A DNA stretch of 64,000 nt from Eledone cirrhosa. Lineage: Eukaryota. Location of the stretch: the NCBI GenBank assembly GCA_964016885.1, contig OZ024743.1, positions 1,612,001 through 1,676,000 on the forward strand, in the 5' to 3' direction. Below the pieces are notes generated by a model. It was not told the origin of the DNA, did no database searches, and saw only the letters and a list, made by a program, of their open reading frames with translations. A program made the translations under genes and the position numbers. Position 1 is the first letter of the stretch. Each line of letters opens with the position of its first letter. Below, in pieces: positions 4,562 to 61,348 of the stretch.

Positions 4562-4617
<56 letters not shown>

Positions 4618-5235
4618 GTGAGGTTTTTTTTACAAAATGAAAAATAACCGAGGTGTCCTACACGAGTGAAAGTATAAAGAAAAAGAGATGAAATCGAAAA
4701 TGCAACTGAAGTCTTATTTTTTTTTAAAATATATATATTTATTTGGTTCCTTTACCGGTTTCGCAGTTCTTCTGCTTTTCAAAAGGTGAGTTGAGATGGA
4801 GGGTCTGTGGTTTTTCTCACATCTGGTTGGTCTCTGAATGTTACTTGTTTTATATGGAAAAAGTGGCTCGAAATTCCAGGTTTTTCGAGAAGTAATTTGA
4901 TTGGTTTGTCAATAATTATAATAAATTTCGCGCCAGTTCGCGTTACAATAGTTCTTCAAATAAGAGAGGGGGGTTGTCACAGGTTGTTTTTTCATATATG
5001 AGTGTTTGAATTTCTTTTTACTTGAAAAAAGGAGGCTCACGAAGGCTTTTTTTTGGTTGGTTATAAATGAAATTTGGCTGTCACGTGAACAAGTTTTTAT
5101 TACATTTTTGCGCCCTTATTTGGAAAACTATTCTGTAGTCTTTATAGTGAATGTTATGACAATGGAGAGATAGTGGTCAAGAGAAAATGGATTGGGAGAA
5201 ATGTTCTGGTTCAGTGAATATGGCCAGCTCTTTTT

Positions 5236-6396
5236 TATGCCAACTTAGTCATGGCATACTTAGAAGTCCAGATATATGAACAGTCCAAATCAAAATACGG
5301 ATTGAACTTCCACAAATATTTATCAGAGAATTGGAAACGCTACTTGGATGATTGCCTCATTCTTTGGTCCCACACGCTCGACCAACTGAAGGATTTCAAA
5401 AACTTAATAAACGGCATCAATAACCACATCCAATTCACAATGGAATACAGCCAAGATCAACTCCCATTTCTGGACATCTTAATCACAAAAAAAGACACAA
5501 ATATCGAAACTGACATACACTACAAACCAACAGATTCCAAACAATATCTGCTATTCACCTCCAACCATCCAAAGCACACGAAGACGAACATTCCTTTTAA
5601 CCTAGCAAGAAGAATTTGCACAATTGTCTCCAATTATGAAACGCGAAATAAAAGACTTCAAGAATTAAAGGAAATTCTACTTGAGAGAGAGTACCCACTA
5701 TTACTAATAAATAATGGAATCGAAAGGGCTACAGCAATAGGCATTGATGAATTACGGAAACAGAAACAAATTCAAGGTACGTCCAATATTCTATCATATA
5801 TCTCAACATACAACCCAAGAAATGCGGAAGCTTAAAACACTATTCACAATAACATCCCACTACTAAAACAAAACCCAAGAATGAAAAAAGCCCTTGAAAC
5901 ACACAAAATAATCAAAAGCAAAAGACAACCAAAATCACTGAAAACATTACTCACCAATGCCAAATTACCTACCACAAACCCACAACCAAGTATCAAAAAA
6001 TGTGGTCGCTCTAATTGTGGAACCTGCACTCACCTCATTGAAGGCAACACGTATACATTTAAATCAGGACAAAATATTACTGTAAAAAATCACTTCACTT
6101 GCTCATCAAAAAATCTACTTTATGCCATTAAATGTAAAGGATGCAATGAAGATTATATAGGACAAACTAAACTCACACTCAGAAACAGAATGACAGTTCA
6201 TCGCCAACAATTACGAGATCCAACCACGAGACAGATACCACTAAGTGCATATCTAGACATTTGCGCAAGTAATAAGACACCCAAATCCCAAGTCTTCCCA
6301 TTTTACCTTTGCGCTAACAATACAACAGAACAAATGCGAATAAATAAGGAAAATATGTTTATTCAAAAATATAGACCAACATTAAATAAGGTTTAA
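5236..6396 (+). pseudogene. Penelope-like RT (C-terminal half) + GIY-YIG endonuclease, one in-frame stop at 5833
   Basis: YANLVMAYLE, WKRYLDDC, LPFLDILI, YKPTDSKQYL (PLE RT and thumb); CGRSNCGTC linker; LLYAIKCKGCNEDYIGQT (GIY-YIG). ORFs 5251-5835 and 5881-6396 are in the same frame. Confidence 0.92.
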
Positions 6397-6887
6397 TATA
6401 CATTATGTCAACACCACAATATGACATACACACACACACATAACACCTTCTACTTTAGAAAATAAAAACCCGAACTAAATAAACCTTAACATACGTTTGC
6501 ACTGGCAATACAACAGCAAACACGAAAAAGTAAGGAAAATATGTTCATTCAAAAATATTCCTACTAAAGGAATCACTTTCCTACACACACACACAATATA
6601 TATATATATATATATTCTCTTCATCTTAACATGCTAACCATACTCCCACACACATAACACCCATACACACACATAACAACCCCCACACCTACAACTCCCT
6701 CCCCATTTCTACTAATAGAACCACTTTCCTACACACATATATATATACACACACACAACATATATATTCTCTCCATCTTAACATACTCGCACACACACAC
6801 ATAACACCCATATACACACACACACAACTCCCTCCCCCATCTCTACTAATAGAATCATCTTCCAATACACACATACACACACACACA

Positions 6888-6946
<59 letters not shown>

Positions 6947-7470
6947 ACACACAAGCACACAAATAAACATACATATCTTCAGTCTCAATAGAAAATCTGA
7001 ACTTTGACACCCCGGCGAGCTAGCCATATTCACTGAACCAGAACATTTCTCTCAATCCATTTTCTCTTGACCACTATCTCTCCGTTGTCATAACATTCAC
7101 TATAAAGACTACAGAATAGTTTTCCAAATAAGGGCGCAAAAATGTAATAAAAACTTGTTCACGTGACAGCCAAATTTCATTTATAACCAACCAAAAAAAA
7201 GCCTTCGTGAGCCTCCTTTTTTCAAGTAAAAAGAAATTCAAACACTCATATATGAAAAAACAACCTGTGACAACCCCCCCCCCTCTCTCTCTTATTTGAA
7301 GAACTATTGTAACGCGAACTGGCGCGCGAAATTTATTATAATTATTGACAAACCAATCAAATTACTTCTCGAAAAACCTGGAATTTCGAGCCACTTTTTC
7401 CATATAAAACAAGTAACATTCAGAGACCAACCAGATGTGAGAAAAACCACAGACCCTCCATCTCAACTCA

Positions 7471-7508
7471 CCTTTTGAAAAGCAGAAGAACTGCGAAACC
7501 GGTAAAGG
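7471..7508 (+). ncRNA. Minimal type I hammerhead in the Penelope pLTR, U3-A8 variant (inverted copy 4749-4786)
   Basis: cctt-TTGAAAA-gcag aagaa ctgc-GAAA-ccgg-TA-aagg. Palindromic helix III ACCGGU. Confidence 0.8.
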
Positions 7509-7577
7509 AACCAAATAAATATATATATTTTTTTTAAAAATAAGACTGCAGTTGCATTTTCGATTTCATCTCTTTTT

Positions 7578-7653
<76 letters not shown>

Positions 7654-8083: not shown

Positions 8084-11000
8084 TTGACGGGACTAGAAGT
8101 AGCAGACAGGACCGAACAGCATGTACCTAGAAAACCGCGGGTTTCTATCAAAGATCATAAATTAGACTTTAAGACTAACCTACCGGGTAGAGTAATAGCA
8201 CCTTCCAAGTCGGACCTAGCTAGGAATATAATAGATAGGATCCTGCCAACGCTTATGAATAGAAATAGACTTAGCTTATGGACTTCCACCAAAGAGGTAA
8301 TCGACTGGTTCACAGCGCTGCCTTCCAAACAGCAAGTGGACTTCGTTCAGCTGGACATAGTAATTGTGAACAAGGCCCTCGTGAGTGCTATGGCCAGGTT
8401 CAACCTAACTAGAGGAGAAGTGGACATCATTATAGCTGCTAGAAAGACTCTAATTAGGTTTGACGGTAGATTATGGAAAAGGAGAGACAGACCCGACAGT
8501 TTCGACATCACTATGGGGTCGAGCGACTCCGCACAGGTGACGGACCTGGTGGGAATTTATCCAACCGCCTATCCACATTGTCCGCCAACACGGATGTGTT
8601 CAATCAGCACGCCGACTACTGCAACGGGGCATTGGTCAGAGCCGGTTACATAGAAGCCATAGTGTACACCCCGGACAAGGGCAAGCCGCATAACGAGGAA
8701 CGCAAACACCCGGAAACCATTAGTACTATCATAGGCAGACAAACCACCCGGGAGCACACACATAAGGATATGGATAGGAGTATTACGCACGGCAAGGAAG
8801 GCACCACGACGCATAGACAGAAGTGGGCGCATGGGAATCCTAGGGACCCCAGCACATGCAGAATGAACCGTAATAACAGCACAAACCACGAAGGGGAAAC
8901 CAAAGATAGTGAAGTAGCTAACGCAGCACAGGACATAGAACACGCTAGAGATAACACCAGGATAAAGAACACCAACAACGATACGGCGGGACACTCGGGT
9001 AGCAGGACGGAGATCAAAACTAGGGCTAGTAAACGTGTACAGAACAGCATAGTAAGTGAATGCCTTTCTCCCGACTTAAATGGTAGTTCTAAGTTAGGGA
9101 TAGAATAGGGGATGAAATAGGAGTCGGGTGTAACCAGAGAAAACAATATGACACTGCACACATTACTAGTAGCAGACGACGAAATAAGAATAGGTCTAGA
9201 AATATAACATGGTTCAATGCACCATACTGGAAGCATGTATGTATGCACTAACGTGCCAGGACTCTTCTTCAGAGCATTAGACGAGTGTTTCCCGGCATCC
9301 CACAGGTACCACAAAATATTCAACCGCCACACCGTGAAGTTCTCATTTTCCACGGCACCCAACATGGCAGAGTACATGGCCAAGGCCAACGCAATGAAAT
9401 TGAGGACACCCCACCGACAAACTTTACAGGCCTCAGGCACGTCGGGAGGGCTGAGTAGAGCGCATGGTGAAGTGGTTAGTGGTTCTGAAGATGTGCCTCG
9501 GTGTGGAGCTGTGGCCGTGGAGGACGCAACACCTGACAACAGAGACCAACAGGTGGTGAACAATGAGTCCACTACTCTGCCGGAACACCACATGAGGACC
9601 GGGGAGAACCCAAATAAGACGTCAGGCCCACATAAAGAGAATGACAAAAATGATGCACGGACATGTAACTACCGTGTAGGAGAGGAGTGCCCTCTGCAGG
9701 GAATGTGCCAGACAAGGCTCGTTGTCTACAGATGTGTGGTTACCACGCACAATGATAGGCACACCTACATGGGGGCAACATCCACGACTTTTCAATCGAG
9801 GATGTACAACCACAAGAACTCGTTCAAGGACAGGAACAAGAGACACTCCACCAGACTGGCGGACCTAATTTGGGATCTCAAAGACAGTGGCACAGAGTTT
9901 GACCTCAGCTGGAGTATTGTCCAGCTCGCAAATGCGTACTCAGCTGGCGAGATGAGGTGCAAGTTGTGCCTATCCGAGGCTATGGAGATAGTAAAACTAA
10001 AGGACGACGCAGTCAACCTCAAATCTGAAGTCATCATGGCCTGCCGACACCAACGTAAATGCACGCTCTCCGCTTTGGTGATACCAGGTGGGTCTATCTA
10101 AGGCACTACCGGTATGACAATGCCAAGTGGGGTGCATGCGGCGGAACACGATATGCCGCAGCATGAATACACGGCTGGACAAGCTGATATCAGCGACAGA
10201 TCCAACGATACCTACCTCGTAACGTACCTTGGATAACACCATCCCACCAACTCGGGGACACCGACTCATTATAAGTCTGATTTTGTCTACAACCTTATGT
10301 GTGGTTTTGAATTTTTTATTTTTAACTTTTAATTTTCGATTCGTGATATTTAATTTGCAACTTTGATGTTGGACTTGATGCGTATCTTAAGATTAGTGTT
10401 GCAGTTAATTCTAACTTTGCCTGCCGTTGCTATCTACACGCCTAAAACACAAGCCGCTGCTATATTCCACTTATGCATCCATTCCACATACATTTCATAT
10501 ATACTGTTATGAAACACATATTCTATACATTCACGATATATTCCATGTATGCATCCATTCCATGTACATTTCATATATACTATTGTGGAAAGGATATTCT
10601 ACACATTCACAATATATATTACTTGTTTGCGTATGCACACACGGTCCCCTGTGTCCACCTGTCTCATGTGCATGGTTGATGTGCACGCTCTTACCCAGTC
10701 CCTTGGATCGTCAGCCCCTCTATATTTTATATAACCCTATGCACCACGGCCCTCAAGTATTTTTATGCAACTTTATGCACATCCCAATAATGTCCGGGTG
10801 ACGTGAACAGACACTCCTCTGCATCTTTGTCATGTATACATTCCTTTTTCCAGTATTTCATTTTATCTTATTTTATTTTATTTTATTTTATTTTATTTTA
10901 TATACATACACGCATTTATATATAGGTGCCACCCATGTTATCTGTGATTAGGGTATGACTACTACGTAGCTATTACATTTATGAATATTGTGCATGCACT

Positions 11001-14025: not shown

Positions 14026-17000
14026 ATAAATTGAAACATAAATGAAAACGAAATTTCATTTCTCACTCTTAGTATGGCACTTACTTAAATGTAAGTATGC
14101 ATGTATACGTACATACATATATGTATACAGACGTACAGTAGCATGCACATATATATATATATATACATATATATATACATATGCATACAGGTACACATAC
14201 ATATATGCACGTATCAGTTTAGCGGCGCTAACGTCGCTTTGTTCGTTTGTAAACAAACTGAACAGCCTGAATTTATGCCATACGGTGTTAAGGCAACCAC
14301 GTCACCTTTTTGTTCAACACTGACACAGGAACGATGTACTAGTTTCAAGCTTGTTAGCTATCATCAGCACCGTTTACCCATCTGCCAGATAGTTGAACGT
14401 TCGAAAGTATATACTTTCCTTATGAAAATTAACGGCTGAGCAGCCTAATTTGCATATTGAGTGAGTTAAATCGGTCAGGCATACCGAAAACGATAAATTG
14501 AAACATAAATGAAAACGAAATTTCATTTCTCACTCTTAGTATGGCACTTACTTAAATGTAAGTATGCATGTATACGTACATACATATATGTATACAGACG
14601 TACAGTAGCATGCACATATATATATATATATACATATATATATACATATGCATACAGGTACACATACATATATGCACGTATCAGTTTAGCGGCGCTAACG
14701 TCGCTTTGTTCGTTTGTAAACAAACTGAACAGCCTGAATTTATGCCATACGGTGTTAAGGCAACCACGTCACCTTTTTGTTCAACACTGACACAGGAACG
14801 ATGTACTAGTTTCAAGCTTGTTAGCTATCATCAGCACCGTTTACCCATCTGCCAGATAGTTGAACGTTCGAAAGTATATACTTTCCTTATGAAAATTAAC
14901 GGCTGAGCAGCCTAATTTGCATATTGAGTGAGTTAAATCGGTCAGGCATACCGAAAACGATAAATTGAAACATAAATGAAAACGAAATTTCATTTCTCAC
15001 TCTTAGTATGGCACTTACTTAAATGTAAGTATGCATGTATACGTACATACATATATGTATACAGACGTACAGTAGCATGCACATATATATATATATATAC
15101 ATATATATATACATATGCATACAGGTACACATACATATATGCACGTATCAGTTTAGCGGCGCTAACGTCGCTTTGTTCGTTTGTAAACAAACTGAACAGC
15201 CTGAATTTATGCCATACGGTGTTAAGGCAACCACGTCACCTTTTTGTTCAACACTGACACAGGAACGATGTACTAGTTTCAAGCTTGTTAGCTATCATCA
15301 GCACCGTTTACCCATCTGCCAGATAGTTGAACGTTCGAAAGTATATACTTTCCTTATGAAAATTAACGGCTGAGCAGCCTAATTTGCATATTGAGTGAGT
15401 TAAATCGGTCAGGCATACCGAAAACGATAAATTGAAACATAAATGAAAACGAAATTTCATTTCTCACTCTTAGTATGGCACTTACTTAAATGTAAGTATG
15501 CATGTATACGTACATACATATATGTATACAGACGTACAGTAGCATGCACATATATATATATATATACATATATATATACATATGCATACAGGTACACATA
15601 CATATATGCACGTATCAGTTTAGCGGCGCTAACGTCGCTTTGTTCGTTTGTAAACAAACTGAACAGCCTGAATTTATGCCATACGGTGTTAAGGCAACCA
15701 CGTCACCTTTTTGTTCAACACTGACACAGGAACGATGTACTAGTTTCAAGCTTGTTAGCTATCATCAGCACCGTTTACCCATCTGCCAGATAGTTGAACG
15801 TTCGAAAGTATATACTTTCCTTATGAAAATTAACGGCTGAGCAGCCTAATTTGCATATTGAGTGAGTTAAATCGGTCAGGCATACCGAAAACGATAAATT
15901 GAAACATAAATGAAAACGAAATTTCATTTCTCACTCTTAGTATGGCACTTACTTAAATGTAAGTATGCATGTATACGTACATACATATATGTATACAGAC
16001 GTACAGTAGCATGCACATATATATATATATATACATATATATATACATATGCATACAGGTACACATACATATATGCACGTATCAGTTTAGCGGCGCTAAC
16101 GTCGCTTTGTTCGTTTGTAAACAAACTGAACAGCCTGAATTTATGCCATACGGTGTTAAGGCAACCACGTCACCTTTTTGTTCAACACTGACACAGGAAC
16201 GATGTACTAGTTTCAAGCTTGTTAGCTATCATCAGCACCGTTTACCCATCTGCCAGATAGTTGAACGTTCGAAAGTATATACTTTCCTTATGAAAATTAA
16301 CGGCTGAGCAGCCTAATTTGCATATTGAGTGAGTTAAATCGGTCAGGCATACCGAAAACGATAAATTGAAACATAAATGAAAACGAAATTTCATTTCTCA
16401 CTCTTAGTATGGCACTTACTTAAATGTAAGTATGCATGTATACGTACATACATATATGTATACAGACGTACAGTAGCATGCACATATATATATATATATA
16501 CATATATATATACATATGCATACAGGTACACATACATATATGCACGTATCAGTTTAGCGGCGCTAACGTCGCTTTGTTCGTTTGTAAACAAACTGAACAG
16601 CCTGAATTTATGCCATACGGTGTTAAGGCAACCACGTCACCTTTTTGTTCAACACTGACACAGGAACGATGTACTAGTTTCAAGCTTGTTAGCTATCATC
16701 AGCACCGTTTACCCATCTGCCAGATAGTTGAACGTTCGAAAGTATATACTTTCCTTATGAAAATTAACGGCTGAGCAGCCTAATTTGCATATTGAGTGAG
16801 TTAAATCGGTCAGGCATACCGAAAACGATAAATTGAAACATAAATGAAAACGAAATTTCATTTCTCACTCTTAGTATGGCACTTACTTAAATGTAAGTAT
16901 GCATGTATACGTACATACATATATGTATACAGACGTACAGTAGCATGCACATATATATATATATACATATATATATACATATGCATACAGGTACACATAC

Positions 17001-17204
17001 ATATATGCACGTATCAGTTTAGCGGCGCTAACGTCGCTTTGTTCGTTTGTAAACAAACTGAACAGCCTGAATTTATGCCATACGGTGTTAAGGCAACCAC
17101 GTCACCTTTTTGTTCAACACTGACACATATATATATATATATATATGTGCATGCTACTGTACGTCTGTATACATATATGTATGTACGTATACATGCATAC
17201 TTAC
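14026..17204 (-). mobile_element. Retrozyme-like tandem array A: 467-bp unit, ~6.6 near-identical copies plus short inverted tail
   Basis: Units start at 14026, 14493, 14960, 15427, 15894, 16361 and 16828 (ORF track repeats every 467 bp); array ends 17127; ~17128-17204 is an inverted piece of the unit; in (TA)n. Confidence 0.92.
14330..14374 (-). ncRNA. Minimal type I hammerhead ribozyme, array A (copies also at 14797, 15264, 15731, 16198, 16665; 45 nt each)
   Basis: aacggtg-CTGATGA-t agct aaca agct t-GAAA-ctag-TA-catcgtt. Helix I 7 bp, palindromic helix III ACUAGU, GUA site. Confidence 0.9.
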
Positions 17205-17209
17205 ATATA

Positions 17210-21336: not shown

Positions 21337-27482
<6,146 letters not shown>

Positions 27483-27779
27483 ATAAAAACAAATAACGAA
27501 ACGAAATTAAATTTCGTTTCGTTTGTAACTCACTTTTGTATGACTGACGCTTAAACAATTAAGTTAAAGATGTACATCCATATATGTATACTGAAATACT
27601 AGTATGTATATGAATACACACACGTATACATATGTAGATGTACCAAGTTTTTTCACTGGTCACTTTTACTGTGAGTGGCCAGCTATTCTGTATGTAAACA
27701 CACAGACAAACCGGTTTTTAGAGTCATACTGGTTTTTGAGGAAACACCTTTCCTCTATTCTCCAGAAAGCCAGACAAGG

Positions 27780-27824
27780 AATATTGAACTAGTTTCGTTG
27801 TTGTTACAACTCATCAGCAATATT
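27780..27824 (-). ncRNA. Minimal type I hammerhead, array B left arm (copies at 28246, 28712, 29179, 29646, 30113, 30580, 31047, 31514, 31981)
   Basis: aatattg-CTGATGA-gttg taacaa caac-GAAA-ctag-TT-caatatt. Palindromic helix III AACUAGUU, GUU site. Confidence 0.9.
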
Positions 27825-30800
27825 TACTATCTTCCGGCCTCTCTAGAGAATCGTAAAAGCACATATCGTTATTGCTTATTTCTATGAAAATTAGTAGTGG
27901 GCAGACTAATTTGCATAGAGTGTGAGTAAGTACCGGTTCAACGGAGACGATAAAAACAAATAACGAAACGAAATTAAATTTCGTTTCGTTTGTAACTCAC
28001 TTTTGTATGACTGACGCTTAAACAATTAAGTTAAAGATGTACATCCATATATGTATACTGAAATACTAGTATGTATATGAATACACACACGTATACATAT
28101 GTAGATGTACCAAGTTTTTTCACTGGTCACTTTACTGTGAGTGGCCAGCTATTCTGTATGTAAACACACAGACAAACCGGTTTTTAGAGTCATACTGGTT
28201 TTTGAGGAAACACCTTTCCTCTATTCTCCAGAAAGCCAGACAAGGAATATTGAACTAGTTTCGTTGTTGTTACAACTCATCAGCAATATTTACCTATCTT
28301 CCGGCCTCTCTAGAGAATCGTAAAAGCACATATCGTTATATGCTTTTTCTATGAAAATTAGTAGTGGGCAGACCAATTTGCATAGAGTGTGAGTAAGTAC
28401 CGGTTCAACGGAGACGATAAAACAAATAACGAAACGAAATTAAATTTCGTTTCGTTTGTAACTCACTTTTGTATGACTGACGCTTAAACAATTAAGTTAA
28501 AGATGTACATCCATATATGTATACTGAAATACTAGTATGTATATGAATACACACACGTATACATATGTAGATGTACCAAGTTTTTTCACTGGTCACTTTA
28601 CTGTGAGTGGCCAGCTATTCTGTATGTAAACACACAGACAAACCGGTTTTTAGAGTCATACTGGTTTTTGAGGAAACACCTTTCCTCTATTCTCCAGAAA
28701 GCCAGACAAGGAATATTGAACTAGTTTCGTTGTTGTTACAACTCATCAGCAATATTTACCTATCTTCCGGCCTCTCTAGAGAATCGTAAAAGCACATATC
28801 GTTATATGCTTTTTCTATGAAAATTAGTAGTGGGCAGACTAATTTGCATAGAGTGTGAGTAAGTACCGGTTCAACGGAGACGATAAAAACAAATAACGAA
28901 ACGAAATTAAATTTCGTTTCGTTTGTAACTCACTTTTGTATGACTGACGCTTAAACAATTAAGTTAAAGATGTACATCCATATATGTATACTGAAATACT
29001 AGTATGTATATGAATACACACACGTATACATATGTAGATGTACCAAGTTTTTTCACTGGTCACTTTACTGTGAGTGGCCAGCTATTCTGTATGTAAACAC
29101 ACAGACAAACCGGTTTTTAGAGTCATACTGGTTTTTGAGGAAACACCTTTCCTCTATTCTCCAGAAAGCCAGACAAGGAATATTGAACTAGTTTCGTTGT
29201 TGTTACAACTCATCAGCAATATTTACCTATCTTCCGGCCTCTCTAGAGAATCGTAAAAGCACATATCGTTATATGCTTTTTCTATGAAAATTAGTAGTGG
29301 GCAGACCAATTTGCATAGAGTGTGAGTAAGTACCGGTTCAACGGAGACGATAAAAACAAATAACGAAACGAAATTAAATTTCGTTTCGTTTGTAACTCAC
29401 TTTTGTATGACTGACGCTTAAACAATTAAGTTAAAGATGTACATCCATATATGTATACTGAAATACTAGTATGTATATGAATACACACACGTATACATAT
29501 GTAGATGTACCAAGTTTTTTCACTGGTCACTTTACTGTGAGTGGCCAGCTATTCTGTATGTAAACACACAGACAAACCGGTTTTTAGAGTCATACTGGTT
29601 TTTGAGGAAACACCTTTCCTCTATTCTCCAGAAAGCCAGACAAGGAATATTGAACTAGTTTCGTTGTTGTTACAACTCATCAGCAATATTTACCTATCTT
29701 CCGGCCTCTCTAGAGAATCGTAAAAGCACATATCGTTATATGCTTTTTCTATGAAAATTAGTAGTGGGCAGACTAATTTGCATAGAGTGTGAGTAAGTAC
29801 CGGTTCAACGGAGACGATAAAAACAAATAACGAAACGAAATTAAATTTCGTTTCGTTTGTAACTTACTTTTGTATGACTGACGCTTAAACAATTAAGTTA
29901 AAGATGTACATCCATATATGTATACTGAAATACTAGTATGTATATGAATACACACACGTATACATATGTAGATGTACCAAGTTTTTTCACTGGTCACTTT
30001 ACTGTGAGTGGCCAGCTATTCTGTATGTAAACACACAGACAAACCGGTTTTTAGAGTCATACTGGTTTTTGAGGAAACACCTTTCCTCTATTCTCCAGAA
30101 AGCCAGACAAGGAATATTGAACTAGTTTCGTTGTTGTTACAACTCATCAGCAATATTTACCTATCTTCCGGCCTCTCTAGAGAATCGTAAAAGCACATAT
30201 CGTTATATGCTTTTTCTATGAAAATTAGTAGTGGGCAGACCAATTTGCATAGAGTGTGAGTAAGTACCGGTTCAACGGAGACGATAAAAACAAATAACGA
30301 AACGAAATTAAATTTCGTTTCGTTTGTAACTCACTTTTGTATGACTGACGCTTAAACAATTAAGTTAAAGATGTACATCCATATATGTATACTGAAATAC
30401 TAGTATGTATATGAATACACACACGTATACATATGTAGATGTACCAAGTTTTTTCACTGGTCACTTTACTGTGAGTGGCCAGCTATTCTGTATGTAAACA
30501 CACAGACAAACCGGTTTTTAGAGTCATACTGGTTTTTGAGGAAACACCTTTCCTCTATTCTCCAGAAAGCCAGACAAGGAATATTGAACTAGTTTCGTTG
30601 TTGTTACAACTCATCAGCAATATTTACCTATCTTCCGGCCTCTCTAGAGAATCGTAAAAGCACATATCGTTATATGCTTTTTCTATGAAAATTAGTAGTG
30701 GGCAGACCAATTTGCATAGAGTGTGAGTAAGTACCGGTTCAACGGAGACGATAAAAACAAATAACGAAACGAAATTAAATTTCGTTTCGTTTGTAACTCA

Positions 30801-32448
30801 CTTTTGTATGACTGACGCTTAAACAATTAAGTTAAAGATGTACATCCATATATGTATACTGAAATACTAGTATGTATATGAATACACACACGTATACATA
30901 TGTAGATGTACCAAGTTTTTTCACTGGTCACTTTACTGTGAGTGGCCAGCTATTCTGTATGTAAACACACAGACAAACCGGTTTTTAGAGTCATACTGGT
31001 TTTTGAGGAAACACCTTTCCTCTATTCTCCAGAAAGCCAGACAAGGAATATTGAACTAGTTTCGTTGTTGTTACAACTCATCAGCAATATTTACCTATCT
31101 TCCGGCCTCTCTAGAGAATCGTAAAAGCACATATCGTTATATGCTTTTTCTATGAAAATTAGTAGTGGGCAGACTAATTTGCATAGAGTGTGAGTAAGTA
31201 CCGGTTCAACGGAGACGATAAAAACAAATAACGAAACGAAATTAAATTTCGTTTCGTTTGTAACTCACTTTTGTATGACTGACGCTTAAACAATTAAGTT
31301 AAAGATGTACATCCATATATGTATACTGAAATACTAGTATGTATATGAATACACACACGTATACATATGTAGATGTACCAAGTTTTTTCACTGGTCACTT
31401 TACTGTGAGTGGCCAGCTATTCTGTATGTAAACACACAGACAAACCGGTTTTTAGAGTCATACTGGTTTTTGAGGAAACACCTTTCCTCTATTCTCCAGA
31501 AAGCCAGACAAGGAATATTGAACTAGTTTCGTTGTTGTTACAACTCATCAGCAATATTTACCTATCTTCCGGCCTCTCTAGAGAATCGTAAAAGCACATA
31601 TCGTTATATGCTTTTTCTATGAAAATTAGTAGTGGGCAGACCAATTTGCATAGAGTGTGAGTAAGTACCGGTTCAACGGAGACGATAAAAACAAATAACG
31701 AAACGAAATTAAATTTCGTTTCGTTTGTAACTCACTTTTGTATGACTGACGCTTAAACAATTAAGTTAAAGATGTACATCCATATATGTATACTGAAATA
31801 CTAGTATGTATATGAATACACACACGTATACATATGTAGATGTACCAAGTTTTTTCACTGGTCACTTTACTGTGAGTGGCCAGCTATTCTGTATGTAAAC
31901 ACACAGACAAACCGGTTTTTAGAGTCATACTGGTTTTTGAGGAAACACCTTTCCTCTATTCTCCAGAAAGCCAGACAAGGAATATTGAACTAGTTTCGTT
32001 GTTGTTACAACTCATCAGCAATATTTACCTATCTTCCGGCCTCTCTAGAGAATCGTAAAAGCACATATCGTTATATGCTTTTTCTATGAAAATTAGTAGT
32101 GGGCAGACTAATTTGCATAGAGTGTGAGTAAGTACCGGTTCAACGGAGACGATAAAAACAAATAACGAAACGAAATTAAATTTCGTTTCGTTTGTAACTC
32201 ACTTTTGTATGACTGACGCTTAAACAATTAAGTTAATTTAACTTAATTGTTTAAGCGTCAGTCATACAAAAGTGAGTTACAAACGAAACGAAATTTAATT
32301 TCGTTTCGTTATTTGTTTTTATCGTCTCCGTTGAACCGGTACTTACTCACACTCTATGCAAATTGGTCTGCCCACTACTAATTTTCATAGAAAAAGCATA
32401 TAACGATATGTGCTTTTACGATTCTCTAGAGAGGCCGGAAGATAGGTA

Positions 32449-32493
32449 AATATTGCTGATGAGTTGTAACAACAACGAAACTAGTTCAATATT
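32449..32493 (+). ncRNA. Minimal type I hammerhead, array B right arm (copies at 32916, 33383)
   Basis: Same motif read directly on the + strand: aatattgctgatgagttgtaacaacaacgaaactagttcaatatt. Confidence 0.9.
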
Positions 32494-33643
32494 CCTTGTC
32501 TGGCTTTCTGGAGAATAGAGGAAAGGTGTTTCCTCAAAAACCAGTATGACTCTAAAAACCGGTTTGTCTGTGTGTTTACATACAGAATAGCTGGCCACTC
32601 ACAGTAAAGTGACCAGTGAAAAAACTTGGTACATCTACATATGTATACGTGTGTGTATTCATATACATACTAGTATTTCAGTATACATATATGGATGTAC
32701 ATCTTTAACTTAATTGTTTAAGCGTCAGTCATACAAAAGTGAGTTACAAACGAAACGAAATTTAATTTCGTTTCGTTATTTGTTTTTATCGTCTCCGTTG
32801 AACCGGTACTTACTCACACTCTATGCAAATTAGTCTGCCCACTACTAATTTTCATAGAAAAAGCATATAACGATATGTGCTTTTACGATTCTCTAGAGAG
32901 GCCGGAAGATAGGTAAATATTGCTGATGAGTTGTAACAACAACGAAACTAGTTCAATATTCCTTGTCTGGCTTTCTGGAGAATAGAGGAAAGGTGTTTCC
33001 TCAAAAACCAGTATGACTCTAAAAACCGGTTTGTCTGTGTGTTTACATACAGAATAGCTGGCCACTCACAGTAAAGTGACCAGTGAAAAAACTTGGTACA
33101 TCTACATATGTATACGTGTGTGTATTCATATACATACTAGTATTTCAGTATACATATATGGATGTACATCTTTAACTTAATTGTTTAAGCGTCAGTCATA
33201 CAAAAGTGAGTTACAAACGAAACGAAATTTAATTTCGTTTCGTTATTTGTTTTTATCGTCTCCGTTGAACCGGTACTTACTCACACTCTATGCAAATTGG
33301 TCTGCCCACTACTAATTTTCATAGAAAAAGCATATAACGATATGTGCTTTTACGATTCTCTAGAGAGGCCGGAAGATAGGTAAATATTGCTGATGAGTTG
33401 TAACAACAACGAAACTAGTTCAATATTCCTTGTCTGGCTTTCTGGAGAATAGAGGAAAGGTGTTTCCTCAAAAACCAGTATGACTCTAAAAACCGGTTTG
33501 TCTGTGTGTTTACATACAGAATAGCTGGCCACTCACAGTAAAGTGACCAGTGAAAAAACTTGGTACATCTACATATGTATACGTGTGTGTATTCATATAC
33601 ATACTAGTATTTCAGTATACATATATGGATGTACATCTTTAAC

Positions 33644-33676
<33 letters not shown>

Positions 33677-33688
33677 CATATACATATA

Positions 33689-35969
33689 TGACGCTATGGA
33701 TTTCCACAATGCAAACTGGGAAGCGATCAGTCATGATCTTGCACATGTCGACTGGTCCTTCACGCACACTCATACACCCACTAACATCAAAAAGTCCTGG
33801 CAGACATTTGTGGACACTGTTACAAACATATGTGCTAAACACACCCCATTAAGAACTATAAACAAATCTAAGAGCAGAATCCCTAGAAATAGAAAAACGC
33901 TCATCAGAAAAATTAAGAGAACGAACAAAAAAATCAACAATCTGAAATACTGTCAGCAGCAACACATCAACTTGACTGCCATTTCATCACTAGAGATTAA
34001 AAAACATAACCTCCAAAACAACATAATGTCCCTCATCAACAATCAGAGAAGAGCTGAAGAGGCCTGGGCCATTGAGAAGATCAAACTCAATCCCAAAGTG
34101 TTCTTTTCATTTGCAAAAAAACACAAAATCACTGGCTCTACTGTTGGCCCTCTAATTGATGAAAATGGCACTCTTCAAGACAATGCTAAAACCATGGGTG
34201 AGATACTGCAGAAACAATACTGCTCTGTTTTCAGCAATCCTGATATGGCCGATCTGGGCTGTATCGGCGATGTTACTCCCCATTACACCTTATCGGACAT
34301 AACGTTTGGCACCCCTGATGTCTTGGCGGCAATAAAGGAAATCAAGCATAACTCAGCAGTAGGTCCCGATAGGTTCCCTGCTTGTGTCTTGAAGGCGTGT
34401 CAACACCAACTTGCTTCTCCTCTTGCCAATCTGTGGCGGAACTCACTGGATGCTGGATATGTGCCAGAAAACCTTCTATCCCAGTCTGTTGTCCCAGTTT
34501 TCAAAAAGGGAAACAAATCCCTTGCCGTGAATTACCGTCCAATCTCACTCACCTCTCATATCATTAAGGTATTTGAGCGAGTGGTGAGATCGCGAATGAC
34601 CCACTTCCTTGAGAGTAACAATATGCTGAACTCCAACCAGCATGGATTCCGTAATGGAAGGGATTGCCTGACGCAACTACTGCATCACTTTGATGACATT
34701 TTGAGAGCCTTGGGAGAGGGTTCCAACACTGATGTTATCTACCTTGATTTCAGCAAGGCCTTTGACAGGGTTGATCATAACATTCTACTGAGAAAGCTGT
34801 CCAATATTGGTGTCACTGGAAAGCTGCTGCAGTGGATCAAGAGCTTCCTGTCAAACAGAACCCAACATGTTGTAGTTGAGGGAGTCAAATCAAGCCCAGC
34901 CAAAGTCAGTAGTGGAGTCCCACAAGGCACTGTGTTGGGCCCACTTCTCTTCATCATCTATATTAATGACATCACTGACATCATCAAACACAGCAACATT
35001 AAAATTTTCGCTGATGATTCCAAGCTCCAAAAGGTCATCAATGGCGTGGATGACCGGATAAGCCTTCAGTCAGACCTACTGGCTGTTACCCAATGGGCAG
35101 AAAAGAACAACATGTTACTGAACGAAGACAAATTCGAACTGATCCACTTTGGAAAAGAGGATGCTCTGAAACTCCCGTACTCCCTTCCCTCCGGGGAAAC
35201 TCTCGTGGCATCTAACAACATCAGAGACTTGGGAGTAACCGTGGACAGCAACATAAGCTGGACCACGCATATAAGCAGCAAAGTTGACATGGCCCGCAGA
35301 ATGTGTTCCTGGATCCTCAGAACCTTCCAGTCGAGAGATTCCCGCACCATTATCCTTCTCTTCTCTACTTTCGCCCGACCACACCTTGAATACTGTTGTC
35401 CACTGTGGTCTCCCCACACGAAACAAAGTATCATGAAACTTGAAGCTCCTCAAAGGGCAATCACGAAAAAGATAGATGGCATGTCAGACCTTGACTACTG
35501 GGGTCGATTGGAAAACCTGAAACTTTACTCACTCCAACGTCGCCGTGAGCGTTATATTATCTGCATGATGTGGAAAATGTTCCATCATCACTGCCCAAAT
35601 GATGTTGGCATCGCCTTCAAGATACACCCAAGGCTTGGGCCCCGTGCTATCCGTCCCATTCAAAAATCTAAATCGCAACTCATAACAACAATACGGCACA
35701 ATTATTTCACCTCAATCGGCCCTGCTCTCTTCAACATCACACCAGGACACGTCAAAACAGAAACTGACCACACAAAATTCAAGAAGTCTTTGGACAAATT
35801 CCTCCAAGTAATCCCGGACAAACCACCCACACCCGGATATGTCTCCGCAAACAGTAATTCTCTTCTCGAATGGGCCATGGTGCCCAAATCCTGAATTGAA
35901 AGACTTCGCCAGGTGGTGCTATTAAGTTAGACATGGCCTGGGCCAATACTGGCCAAAACATTTCAAAGT

Positions 35970-60079: not shown

Positions 60080-60314
60080 GGTGTGTTTTCACTGTTCTCT
60101 TAAGTCGACACTGACTAACAGACTGGTGAGGGCTAGAGGTGTGTTTTTACTGCTCAGCTAAGACGACACTGACAAACTGACTGATGAGGGCCAGAAGTGT
60201 GTTTTCACTGCTCAGCTAAGATGACACTAACTAACTGACTGATGAGGGCCAGAAGTGTGTTTTCACTGCTCAGCTAAGGTGAAAGTCAGAGGTGTGTTTT
60301 CACTGCTCAGCTAA
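60080..60314. repeat. 58-bp minisatellite, ~3.6 copies
   Basis: gtgtgttttcactgctcagctaag...ctgatgagggccagaa recurs at ~60081, 60139, 60197 and 60255. Confidence 0.8.
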
Positions 60315-61348
60315 TGCGCGTTCCGTTTGCGTTTCAATCTTTGTGAAATAGCTATGACATCGGTTTTTCGTAGCATATTTTCCAGCTAATTTAAAAAAAC
60401 CCAGTCCTGTGGCCCACCGGACATTTTCCAAATGTTGGTATGATTATTTTACCTCGAGGTACACATACTAGAGAACATTACTGAATTAATTTTGGGGTTT
60501 CACGAAAGGTGTGTTAGATTGGAGAAAATGGAAAAAGCGGAAGACGATGGGTTGGAGAGGCCAGATAGCAGGTGGAGATGAGGAAGAAAGAAACCCAGAG
60601 GGGGTTAGTGGGGGTAGAGCAGAAGTGTGGGGAATAGCTGTAGGTCGGCGACAGGGTCACATCGAGGGCAATGAGGGACGGGAAGTAGAACTGCATAAAT
60701 GGTTCATGCCATGATCCACTGTTTGATATTCTTCGTAATGTAGTCCGTGAAGCATTTTAAACATTTTATGAATGTTTTAAGACTTTTAACCACGATTTAC
60801 CAAATAAGTACATGTAGTATTTGACACAAAATGCAAATTTATTGCACAAAATTAGATTTATAATTGTACAAGCAGGGGCCAACTGCACAAAATATGATTT
60901 AGAACTATACAAGTAGACGTTAACTACACATGCAGGGGTCAGCTGTATAGTCAGAGGTCACGTGTATAAGCAGGGTTTAACTGTATAAGCAGCGGCTGAC
61001 TGTACAAGCAGATGTAGAGAGATTGCCGAATCCAAGCAGGAGTTAAAATAATGACTGAATCCATAATAACTAAAAGTCCCACCATCTTATTTTCTTGTAT
61101 CTAAGGTCTCGAGAAACCAACATTTACTATTATTTGGTGGATTGGCAGTTTCGGTAGAGGGTCGGACGCTATGCTTTGCAGAATAGAGTAGCGGCCCTTT
61201 ACGGTCTGAGTACAAATCCCGCCAAGGTTAATTTTGCTTTTCATCCTTACGGGGTCGATAAAATAAAGCACCAGTAATGTACTGGGGTAATTGCTGGCCT
61301 TGTGCCAAAAGTAGAAACTATTATTTTAATTTTAAAAAAAATGTTCAC

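Follow-up and report, generated by a model that had tools for sequence, protein, structure and literature searches.

Retrozymes of metazoans that lack long terminal repeats (non-LTR retrozymes) are non-coding tandem arrays of strongly folded units that are low in guanine and cytosine (GC) and each carry a type I hammerhead ribozyme, and they are proposed to move via circular RNA with the help of Penelope enzymes (Cervera and de la Pena 2020, PMC7229834; Li, Clavereau and Pollet 2026, 10.64898/2026.07.22.740005; statements on published work refer throughout to the covered parts of the sources). The copying of circular RNA into animal retrozymes and Penelope tandems is a standing hypothesis that the literature puts as a model (PMC4209133, PMC7229834, 10.64898/2026.07.22.740005). 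Here we describe an array of this kind, array B, in a 64,000-nucleotide window of the Eledone cirrhosa assembly GCA_964016885.1 (contig OZ024743.1, positions 1,612,001 to 1,676,000 of the forward strand; all coordinates are those of the window, and features are collected in Table 1). Its 467-bp units, just above the 150-450 bp of one published account (PMC7229834) and within the 51-972 bp of the other (10.64898/2026.07.22.740005), alternate between two alleles of a single base, and this alternation continues across an inversion. Neither the order of variants along an array nor their phase across an inversion features in the covered parts of those accounts. A literature search that missed most subscription papers and did not extend to supplements found no published alternating or dimer-circle signature in retro-inserted arrays.

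Array B consists of a long left arm and a short inverted right arm that meet 5' to 5', and both of its outer ends are RNA 3' ends set in (TA)n. A first-pass annotation of the window had reported that the T/C base at register 423 of the monomer (position 31220 being register 1) alternates from unit to unit, and on re-reading the letters agreed at 13 of 13 sites. When both arms are aligned to the monomer, this base is the sole variant common to several units; the remaining differences are private and comprise four one-base indels in unit 1 beside the (TA)n, one A lost at 28419 and a C>T change at 29865. The left arm alone forms 9 runs (P=10/252=0.040), and the joined template order of inverted arm and then left arm, CTC followed by TCTCCTCTCT, forms 12 of 13 possible runs (P=13/1716=0.0076), a figure to be read with the joined order being our own model and the type of pattern having been chosen after seeing the data. 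The 934-bp dimer phase of the first-pass annotation thus holds as an alternation but not as a strict phase along the whole array, which requires one slip: without it, period 2 leaves 6 mismatches in 13, while period 7 leaves none. Strict periods 2-6 and 8 without slip were all rejected with 3-6 mismatches in 13. The single C,C of array B would mark either a slip of phase by one unit or the point where a 7-unit template was joined. A two-monomer period over a monomer array is also a property of satellite higher-order repeats, from which array B differs in having one diagnostic base instead of diverged monomers and in being a dispersed 6-kb insertion with retroelement ends instead of a large centromeric block; as a higher-order repeat of period 2 it would offer one site only, need one slip and compete with a slip-free period 7.

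In joined template order the phase of the alternation is unbroken across the inversion. Copying of the left arm by fold-back or as a hairpin is ruled out, with none of three sites matching the mirror: it would read T,C,T from the junction, where C,T,C is observed. Because both arms alternate both alleles, with a phase that continues across a non-mirror inversion, the T/C rhythm was most likely already present on the RNA template before insertion. This much of the first-pass proposal of a two-unit circle or multimer as template stands, and toy models leave both a circle and a linear multimer, and both an RNA and a DNA origin of the rhythm, in play. Tandem arrays and long palindromes are unstable, and the C,C break means that at least one phase shift occurred, both of which speak for a rhythm that formed at the locus after insertion by duplication or gene conversion within or between the arms. 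We nevertheless give little credence to this explanation, as both arms alternate in continuing and not in mirror phase and as conversion across the palindrome would tend to make the arms mirrors of each other.

The available sequences indicate that C is the derived and rare allele, because the related array A of the same window has T at the homologous site and because C at 31175 was not seen at 3% or more in any of three contig sets (X1, X4 and X5, sequencing runs that cover the site and for which variants are listed at >=3%; a link of X1 to the individual of the window is not established). This limit on the rarity of C has to be read against a summed X1 depth of around 250,000 at the site and contigs that drop rare forms, so that a few further loci would escape. 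A family-wide heterodimer is ruled out in X1, X4 and X5 by the lack of any variant at 31175 at this threshold. Sharing of the pattern across dispersed loci, on which the first-pass annotation had made its interpretation depend, likewise found no support in these sets, where the test has low power for a handful of loci in so large a family. Only 1 of 467 bases separates T from C units, compared with about 3.8 of 17 listed variable sites between two randomly drawn X1 members of the family (a rough value from depth shares), and the two kinds of units therefore share one parent lineage and were not paired by chance.

Seen on the RNA strand, the variant is an A>G change in a U-A-G context within a stem, where A-U becomes G-U at a modelled difference of 0.3 kcal/mol. 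The predicted folding energies of circles with two A units, one of each or two G units (-315.0, -314.7 and -314.4 kcal/mol) give the heterodimer no advantage, and the single-nucleotide polymorphism (SNP) lies 122 nt from the ribozyme cut site. A role of the SNP in the ribozyme itself or in the folding of dimers was rejected on these grounds, and it looks like a neutral marker instead of a working part in these models. UAG is the preferred ADAR context, and an A>G change in such a stem fits ADAR editing, yet transitions are common. Independent adenosine-to-inosine (A-to-I) editing of each unit of a long template, or chance, would explain the kind of change and its context without any periodic template, but we consider this very improbable: independent sites give at least 12 runs in 0.3% of cases, there is no further edited site in 6.1 kb, and among the X1 family variants (T>C 4 and A>G 2, of 12 places) the change is not clearly over-represented.

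Judged by its sequence, array B is a non-LTR retrozyme and a new member of this known class. It is built of head-to-tail units of a few hundred bases with a GC content of around 35%, i.e. under 45-50%, it has a type I hammerhead in each of the 13 units by motif scan (on the minus strand in the left and on the plus strand in the right arm), and it has neither an LTR nor coding capacity, as no open reading frame (ORF) of at least 150 amino acids lies wholly within it; the monomer is predicted to fold far more stably than shuffled sequences (z = -10.15). The family is dispersed over multiple loci: 1050 X1 contigs match the monomer and form a diverse set (555 of them >=99% alike), loose ends run into (TA)n at two registers, and the related array A lies in the same window. 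Part of the monomer was found in 20 of the 24 sequencing runs listed (17 studies), with no RNA run among the holders and 16 not used as evidence, while scans of collections of metagenome and viral contigs gave 0 matches each. X4 and X5 carry other organism codes; matched to window positions 30902-31368, X4 holds one 497-nt wrap-round contig with 3 differences from the monomer at depth 11, and X5 holds 227 identical bases at depth 17 with three loose ends in non-TA flanks. These occurrences fit trace contamination from a family of very high copy number as well as genuine sharing between species. In X21, a run of raw Hi-C reads sampled at about 1 in 100, none of 12.8 million reads matched, a result that carries no weight as a test.

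The hammerhead has no match in Rfam at the gathering score, and its assignment therefore rests on motif and covariation: three pairs of stem I have changed between arrays A and B without loss of pairing (alignment read by eye), and in the X4 contig 31065 and 31076 change together, turning a stem II U-A into A-U. A broad hammerhead scan outside arrays A and B found nothing. Cuts in the right arm are predicted before 32487, 32954 and 33421. Stem III comprises 2 bp and closes on a palindromic 2-nt loop, and an 8-bp self-complementary site is found at register 302; a double hammerhead is modelled at -15.2 kcal/mol compared with -10.6 kcal/mol for two open monomers, and partner-dependent cleavage of the array B hammerhead is likely on this prediction. 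The cleavage triplet (31054, register 302) varies: it is GUU in array B and GUA in array A, and GUU again for about 92% of X1 depth, with GUC accounting for 7.6% of that depth and occurring also in the X4 contig. GUU is cleaved more slowly than GUC, and weak cleavage at GUU may let dimers survive.

GUU is an accepted hammerhead cleavage site (PMC3138052). Array B shares the 2-bp stem III and a palindromic loop that can pair with the ribozyme of the next unit with the double hammerheads of amphibian satellite transcripts and of Penelope pseudo-LTRs (pLTRs; PMC4209133, PMC7229834), and differs from them in its GUU triplet and in that dimeric folding predicts cleavage of multimers and not dimer products. 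Through dimeric folding, multimers can be cleaved while monomer circles are spared (PMC4209133), so that a dimer circle should be able to cut itself. The first-pass view that the pattern is consistent with dimer-dependent hammerhead processing is not supported by this account, in which it is the monomer circle that dimer folding protects and the dimer circle that self-cuts.

The ends of array B resemble those of Penelope-like insertions, whose hallmarks are an adjoining inverted 5'-truncated copy, a tail at one end only and (TA)n targets (Craig et al. 2021, PMC8557442), and for which the purified Penelope protein has two internal start sites of reverse transcription, nicks and extends both strands and uses AT-rich targets (Frangieh et al. 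2024, PMC11167929). Unlike these insertions, array B has no ORF, comprises 13 tandem units and has start sites around 62-69 nt apart, compared with 30-40 bp (PMC8557442, PMC11167929). An inverted 5'-truncated copy, a one-sided tail and a microsatellite target are found in arrays A and B as well as in a coding Penelope-like element at 4612-7584. A blastn comparison of both array monomers with the 64-kb window gave only TA-rich matches outside the arrays and no kinship with that element. The left arm of array B has its outer end at register 466 and its 5' end at register 83; since, among the loose ends listed, 12 X1 contigs run into (TA)n at register 466 (31218) and 4 at register 68, with 37 more loose ends beyond this list, its outer left end is the main insertion end of the family. 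The junction of the arms lies at the foot of a long stem and adjoins a 10-bp self-complementary site (register 85-94), and the 3' end of the right arm (register 79) abuts the 5' end of the left arm (register 83), making the arms colinear with a 5-nt overlap. Both flanks being (TA)n, no target-site duplication is readable.

The twin priming model that Ostertag and Kazazian reportedly proposed for L1 in 2001 is said to yield a 5'-5' junction at which the primed end of the inverted segment abuts the 5' end of the other segment. A right arm whose 3' end abuts the 5' end of the left arm is what twin priming on one template predicts. Array B is like L1 twin priming in its 5'-5' junction, its abutting ends and their overlap of a few bases, and differs in the lack of poly(A) priming and of a readable target-site duplication and in that both 5' ends lie at the same register. 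We infer that array B goes back to a single recent event in which a non-autonomous hammerhead retrozyme was inserted into (TA)n by a Penelope-like reverse transcriptase (RT) and endonuclease that primed on both DNA strands. An 88-nt X1 contig (record 6, window 31218-31303) spans registers 466 to 84, i.e. both arm-end boundaries of array B, and hints at register 83-84 as a recurrent stop.

This geometry also bears on an artefact of assembly or consensus, in the form of mis-phased units or a chimeric inverted join. The five private indels of one base each, close to the long (TA)n, point to consensus errors in that area, and neither the strand-change joint nor the C allele is listed for X1, though its contigs drop rare forms. 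Such an artefact is still quite improbable, for the 6.1 kb contain a single other substitution, a fold-back read would have produced mirrored arms with one and the same flank where the arms of array B are not mirrors and their flanks differ, and both array A and the Penelope-like copy share the geometry.

One array leaves the mechanism unsettled, and from the observed pattern, ribozyme motif, insertion geometry, non-mirror phase and rarity of C we infer the RNA steps as follows. One unit of a parent array would have gained a single A>G on the RNA strand, and a tandem transcript would have been cut incompletely by the weak, partner-dependent GUU hammerhead, with an A unit and a G unit being ligated into a 934-nt circle. 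RT would then have run round this circle and made a concatemer of alternating units. This would have happened in this insertion or one generation earlier, in the latter case with a long uncut or 7-unit RNA copied afterwards. Finally, two complementary DNAs (cDNAs), begun at the main start site of the family and near the second start site, would have been joined in the 5' to 5' arrangement that array B displays. Of the single explanations of the rhythm we prefer a 934-nt RNA circle, formed in this generation or the one before, though we hold it tentatively and with somewhat less than even confidence. That the dimer circle was copied directly in this insertion is possible but doubtful, and that it existed one generation back is rather unlikely. 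As a precedent, RtcB yields circular dimers of axolotl retrozyme RNA as a minor product in vitro, and dimeric and trimeric RNAs are present in tissues (PMC7229834).

In toy simulations (200,000 arrays per model, polymorphic arrays counted, scored for exactly 12 runs), the dimer circle produced the score in 19% (slip 0.02) or 38% (slip 0.1) of arrays, block duplication from a T-C seed in 12% and from a TTCT seed in 1.5%, unequal crossing over in 1.6-3.3% and independent sites in 0.3%. These shares disfavour chance and simple unequal exchange and not block duplication in the parent array, over which the dimer circle is favoured only 1.5-3 fold. The rhythm may therefore have arisen in parent-array DNA, as a duplicated T-C block or a 934-bp DNA circle, and have been carried over by an uncut RNA of at least 13 units (>=6.1 kb) through twin-primed reverse transcription. 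Besides the simulated share, the colinear arms with their 5-nt overlap and the end of array A near a ribozyme cut (see below) agree with such a read-through. Uncut RNA is the main substrate of Penelope RT in vitro (PMC11167929), 8 of 9 Xenopus retrozyme dimers show no in vitro cleavage, and unequal crossover is the accepted model of satellite growth (10.64898/2026.07.22.740005). Against this stand the need for a parent with a T-C pair, since a 4-unit seed with one variant drops the share to 1.5-2.9%, and the need for 13 successive ribozymes to stay uncut, and on balance we regard a DNA origin with read-through as somewhat unlikely.

Besides the small simulated advantage and the substrate preference just given, several further observations weigh against the 934-nt RNA circle. 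In the folding model a dimer circle is able to adopt the double-hammerhead fold, which would let it cut itself, the multimers of axolotl retrozymes ran at linear sizes (PMC7229834), and the C allele is missing from all three contig sets at their threshold. The long arm of array A has its 5' end (17127-17136) 9 nt downstream of a predicted hammerhead cut, a position with a probability of about 2% by chance, which hints that RT reached the end of a cleaved linear RNA in which six ribozymes had stayed uncut. Also against the circle, a left cDNA of array B that ended on meeting the second primer after 10 units would imply a long template and not a 2-unit circle. A caveat on the reading of both arms as one template is that the 5' end of the right arm, too, lies at register 84 and the foot of the long stem: a shared pause site may explain the adjacency of the arm ends, and two sister RNAs would be in phase in half of all cases. 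With one marker site in one array, an RNA circle and a DNA duplication cannot be told apart.

No two-unit molecule at all would be needed if a dimeric Penelope RT jumped between two RNAs, one with A and one with G, or copied a single linear dimer repeatedly from end to end. In favour of this, a dimeric state is predicted for the Penelope protein, which extends both strands (PMC11167929), and units join without a seam at the ribozyme cut, a requirement of all such routes. However, several differences would normally be expected between two RNAs of the family pool, and eleven exact scarless jumps have no support in the literature consulted, leaving a very slight probability for this explanation.

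A private variant in a young array can be read like the hand of a clock, as an n-unit circle would leave a strict period n, a linear template the order of the parent and DNA duplication nested blocks. Array B shows that such marks exist and persist across an inversion, and in a family of this size a survey of one good assembly could decide the rolling-circle question without bench work. It is an improbable but consequential variant of the 934-nt circle that array B is a record of its rolling-circle copying with one A-to-I-edited unit (A>G, UAG, stem) written into both arms; if true, array phase would tell the size of the circles copied by Penelope enzymes in the germ line, and their state of editing.

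Table 1. Features of array B and its surroundings in the 64,000-nucleotide window.
Feature	Position	Strand	Description
Array B, left arm	27483..32236	(-) hammerhead/RNA strand	10.2 units of 467 bp (Tandem Repeats Finder)
Array B, inverted right arm	32237..33643	(+) RNA strand	3.0 units + 6 bp (Tandem Repeats Finder); 5' end at register 84, 3' end at register 79
Head-to-head (5'-5') arm junction	32230..32244		Palindrome centred on T32237; no microhomology
Ten variable sites, left arm, register 423	27907, 28374, 28840, 29307, 29774, 30241, 30708, 31175, 31642, 32109		T,C,T,C,T,C,C,T,C,T on the + strand; A/G on the RNA strand
Three variable sites, right arm	32365, 32832, 33299		C,T,C in the convention of the first-pass annotation; G,A,G on the RNA strand
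Hairpin with variable base and octamer-like ATGCAAAT	32354..32390	(+)	Modelled pair probability 1.0 for both alleles
Type I hammerhead, one of 13	32449..32493	(+)	7-bp stem I, CUGAUGA core, 5-bp stem II, GAAA, 2-bp palindromic stem III, GUU triplet
Left (TA)n flank of array B	21337..27482		About 6 kb, interrupted
Right (TA)n flank of array B	33644..33689		Followed by truncated reading frame of long interspersed nuclear element (LINE) type RT (RVT_1)
Array A	14026..17207	(-)	Related 467-bp hammerhead unit, 6.6 units, no substitution; 320/424 aligned bases identical to array B
Penelope-like element (GIY-YIG)	4612..7584	(+)	In (TA)n; inverted terminal copy; tail of about 62 nt on one end only; arms with 550 identities and 8 mismatches

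Array A has the same head-to-head layout as array B, with a short inverted piece at around 17130-17206, and its stem II lacks the usual G-C closing pair. The octamer-like ATGCAAAT (32356-32363) is present in every unit of array B and, together with an inverted near-copy around 20 nt away, conserved between the two arrays. In newt satellite 2, an octamer is part of a promoter of the small nuclear RNA (snRNA) type.

Within the left (TA)n flank of array B (21337-27482), the interruptions change from G-type to C-type at around 26650, which suggests two tracts of opposite orientation. On the other side, a stop-free frame (33525-35894) extends from inside the inverted arm via the short (TA)n into the LINE-type RT (RVT_1), probably by coincidence. 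The terminal repeat of the Penelope-like element contains, by eye, a hammerhead-like fold (7470-7510) with a palindromic stem III and an altered core in which U and A replace C3 and G8. A second, decayed element follows at 8084-10101, with frames that appear Penelope-like by eye and of which neither has a match in Pfam. At 60081-60315 there is a tandem repeat of 58 bp with at least 3.4 copies; no complete hammerhead was found in it in our scans, and it holds CTGATGAG.

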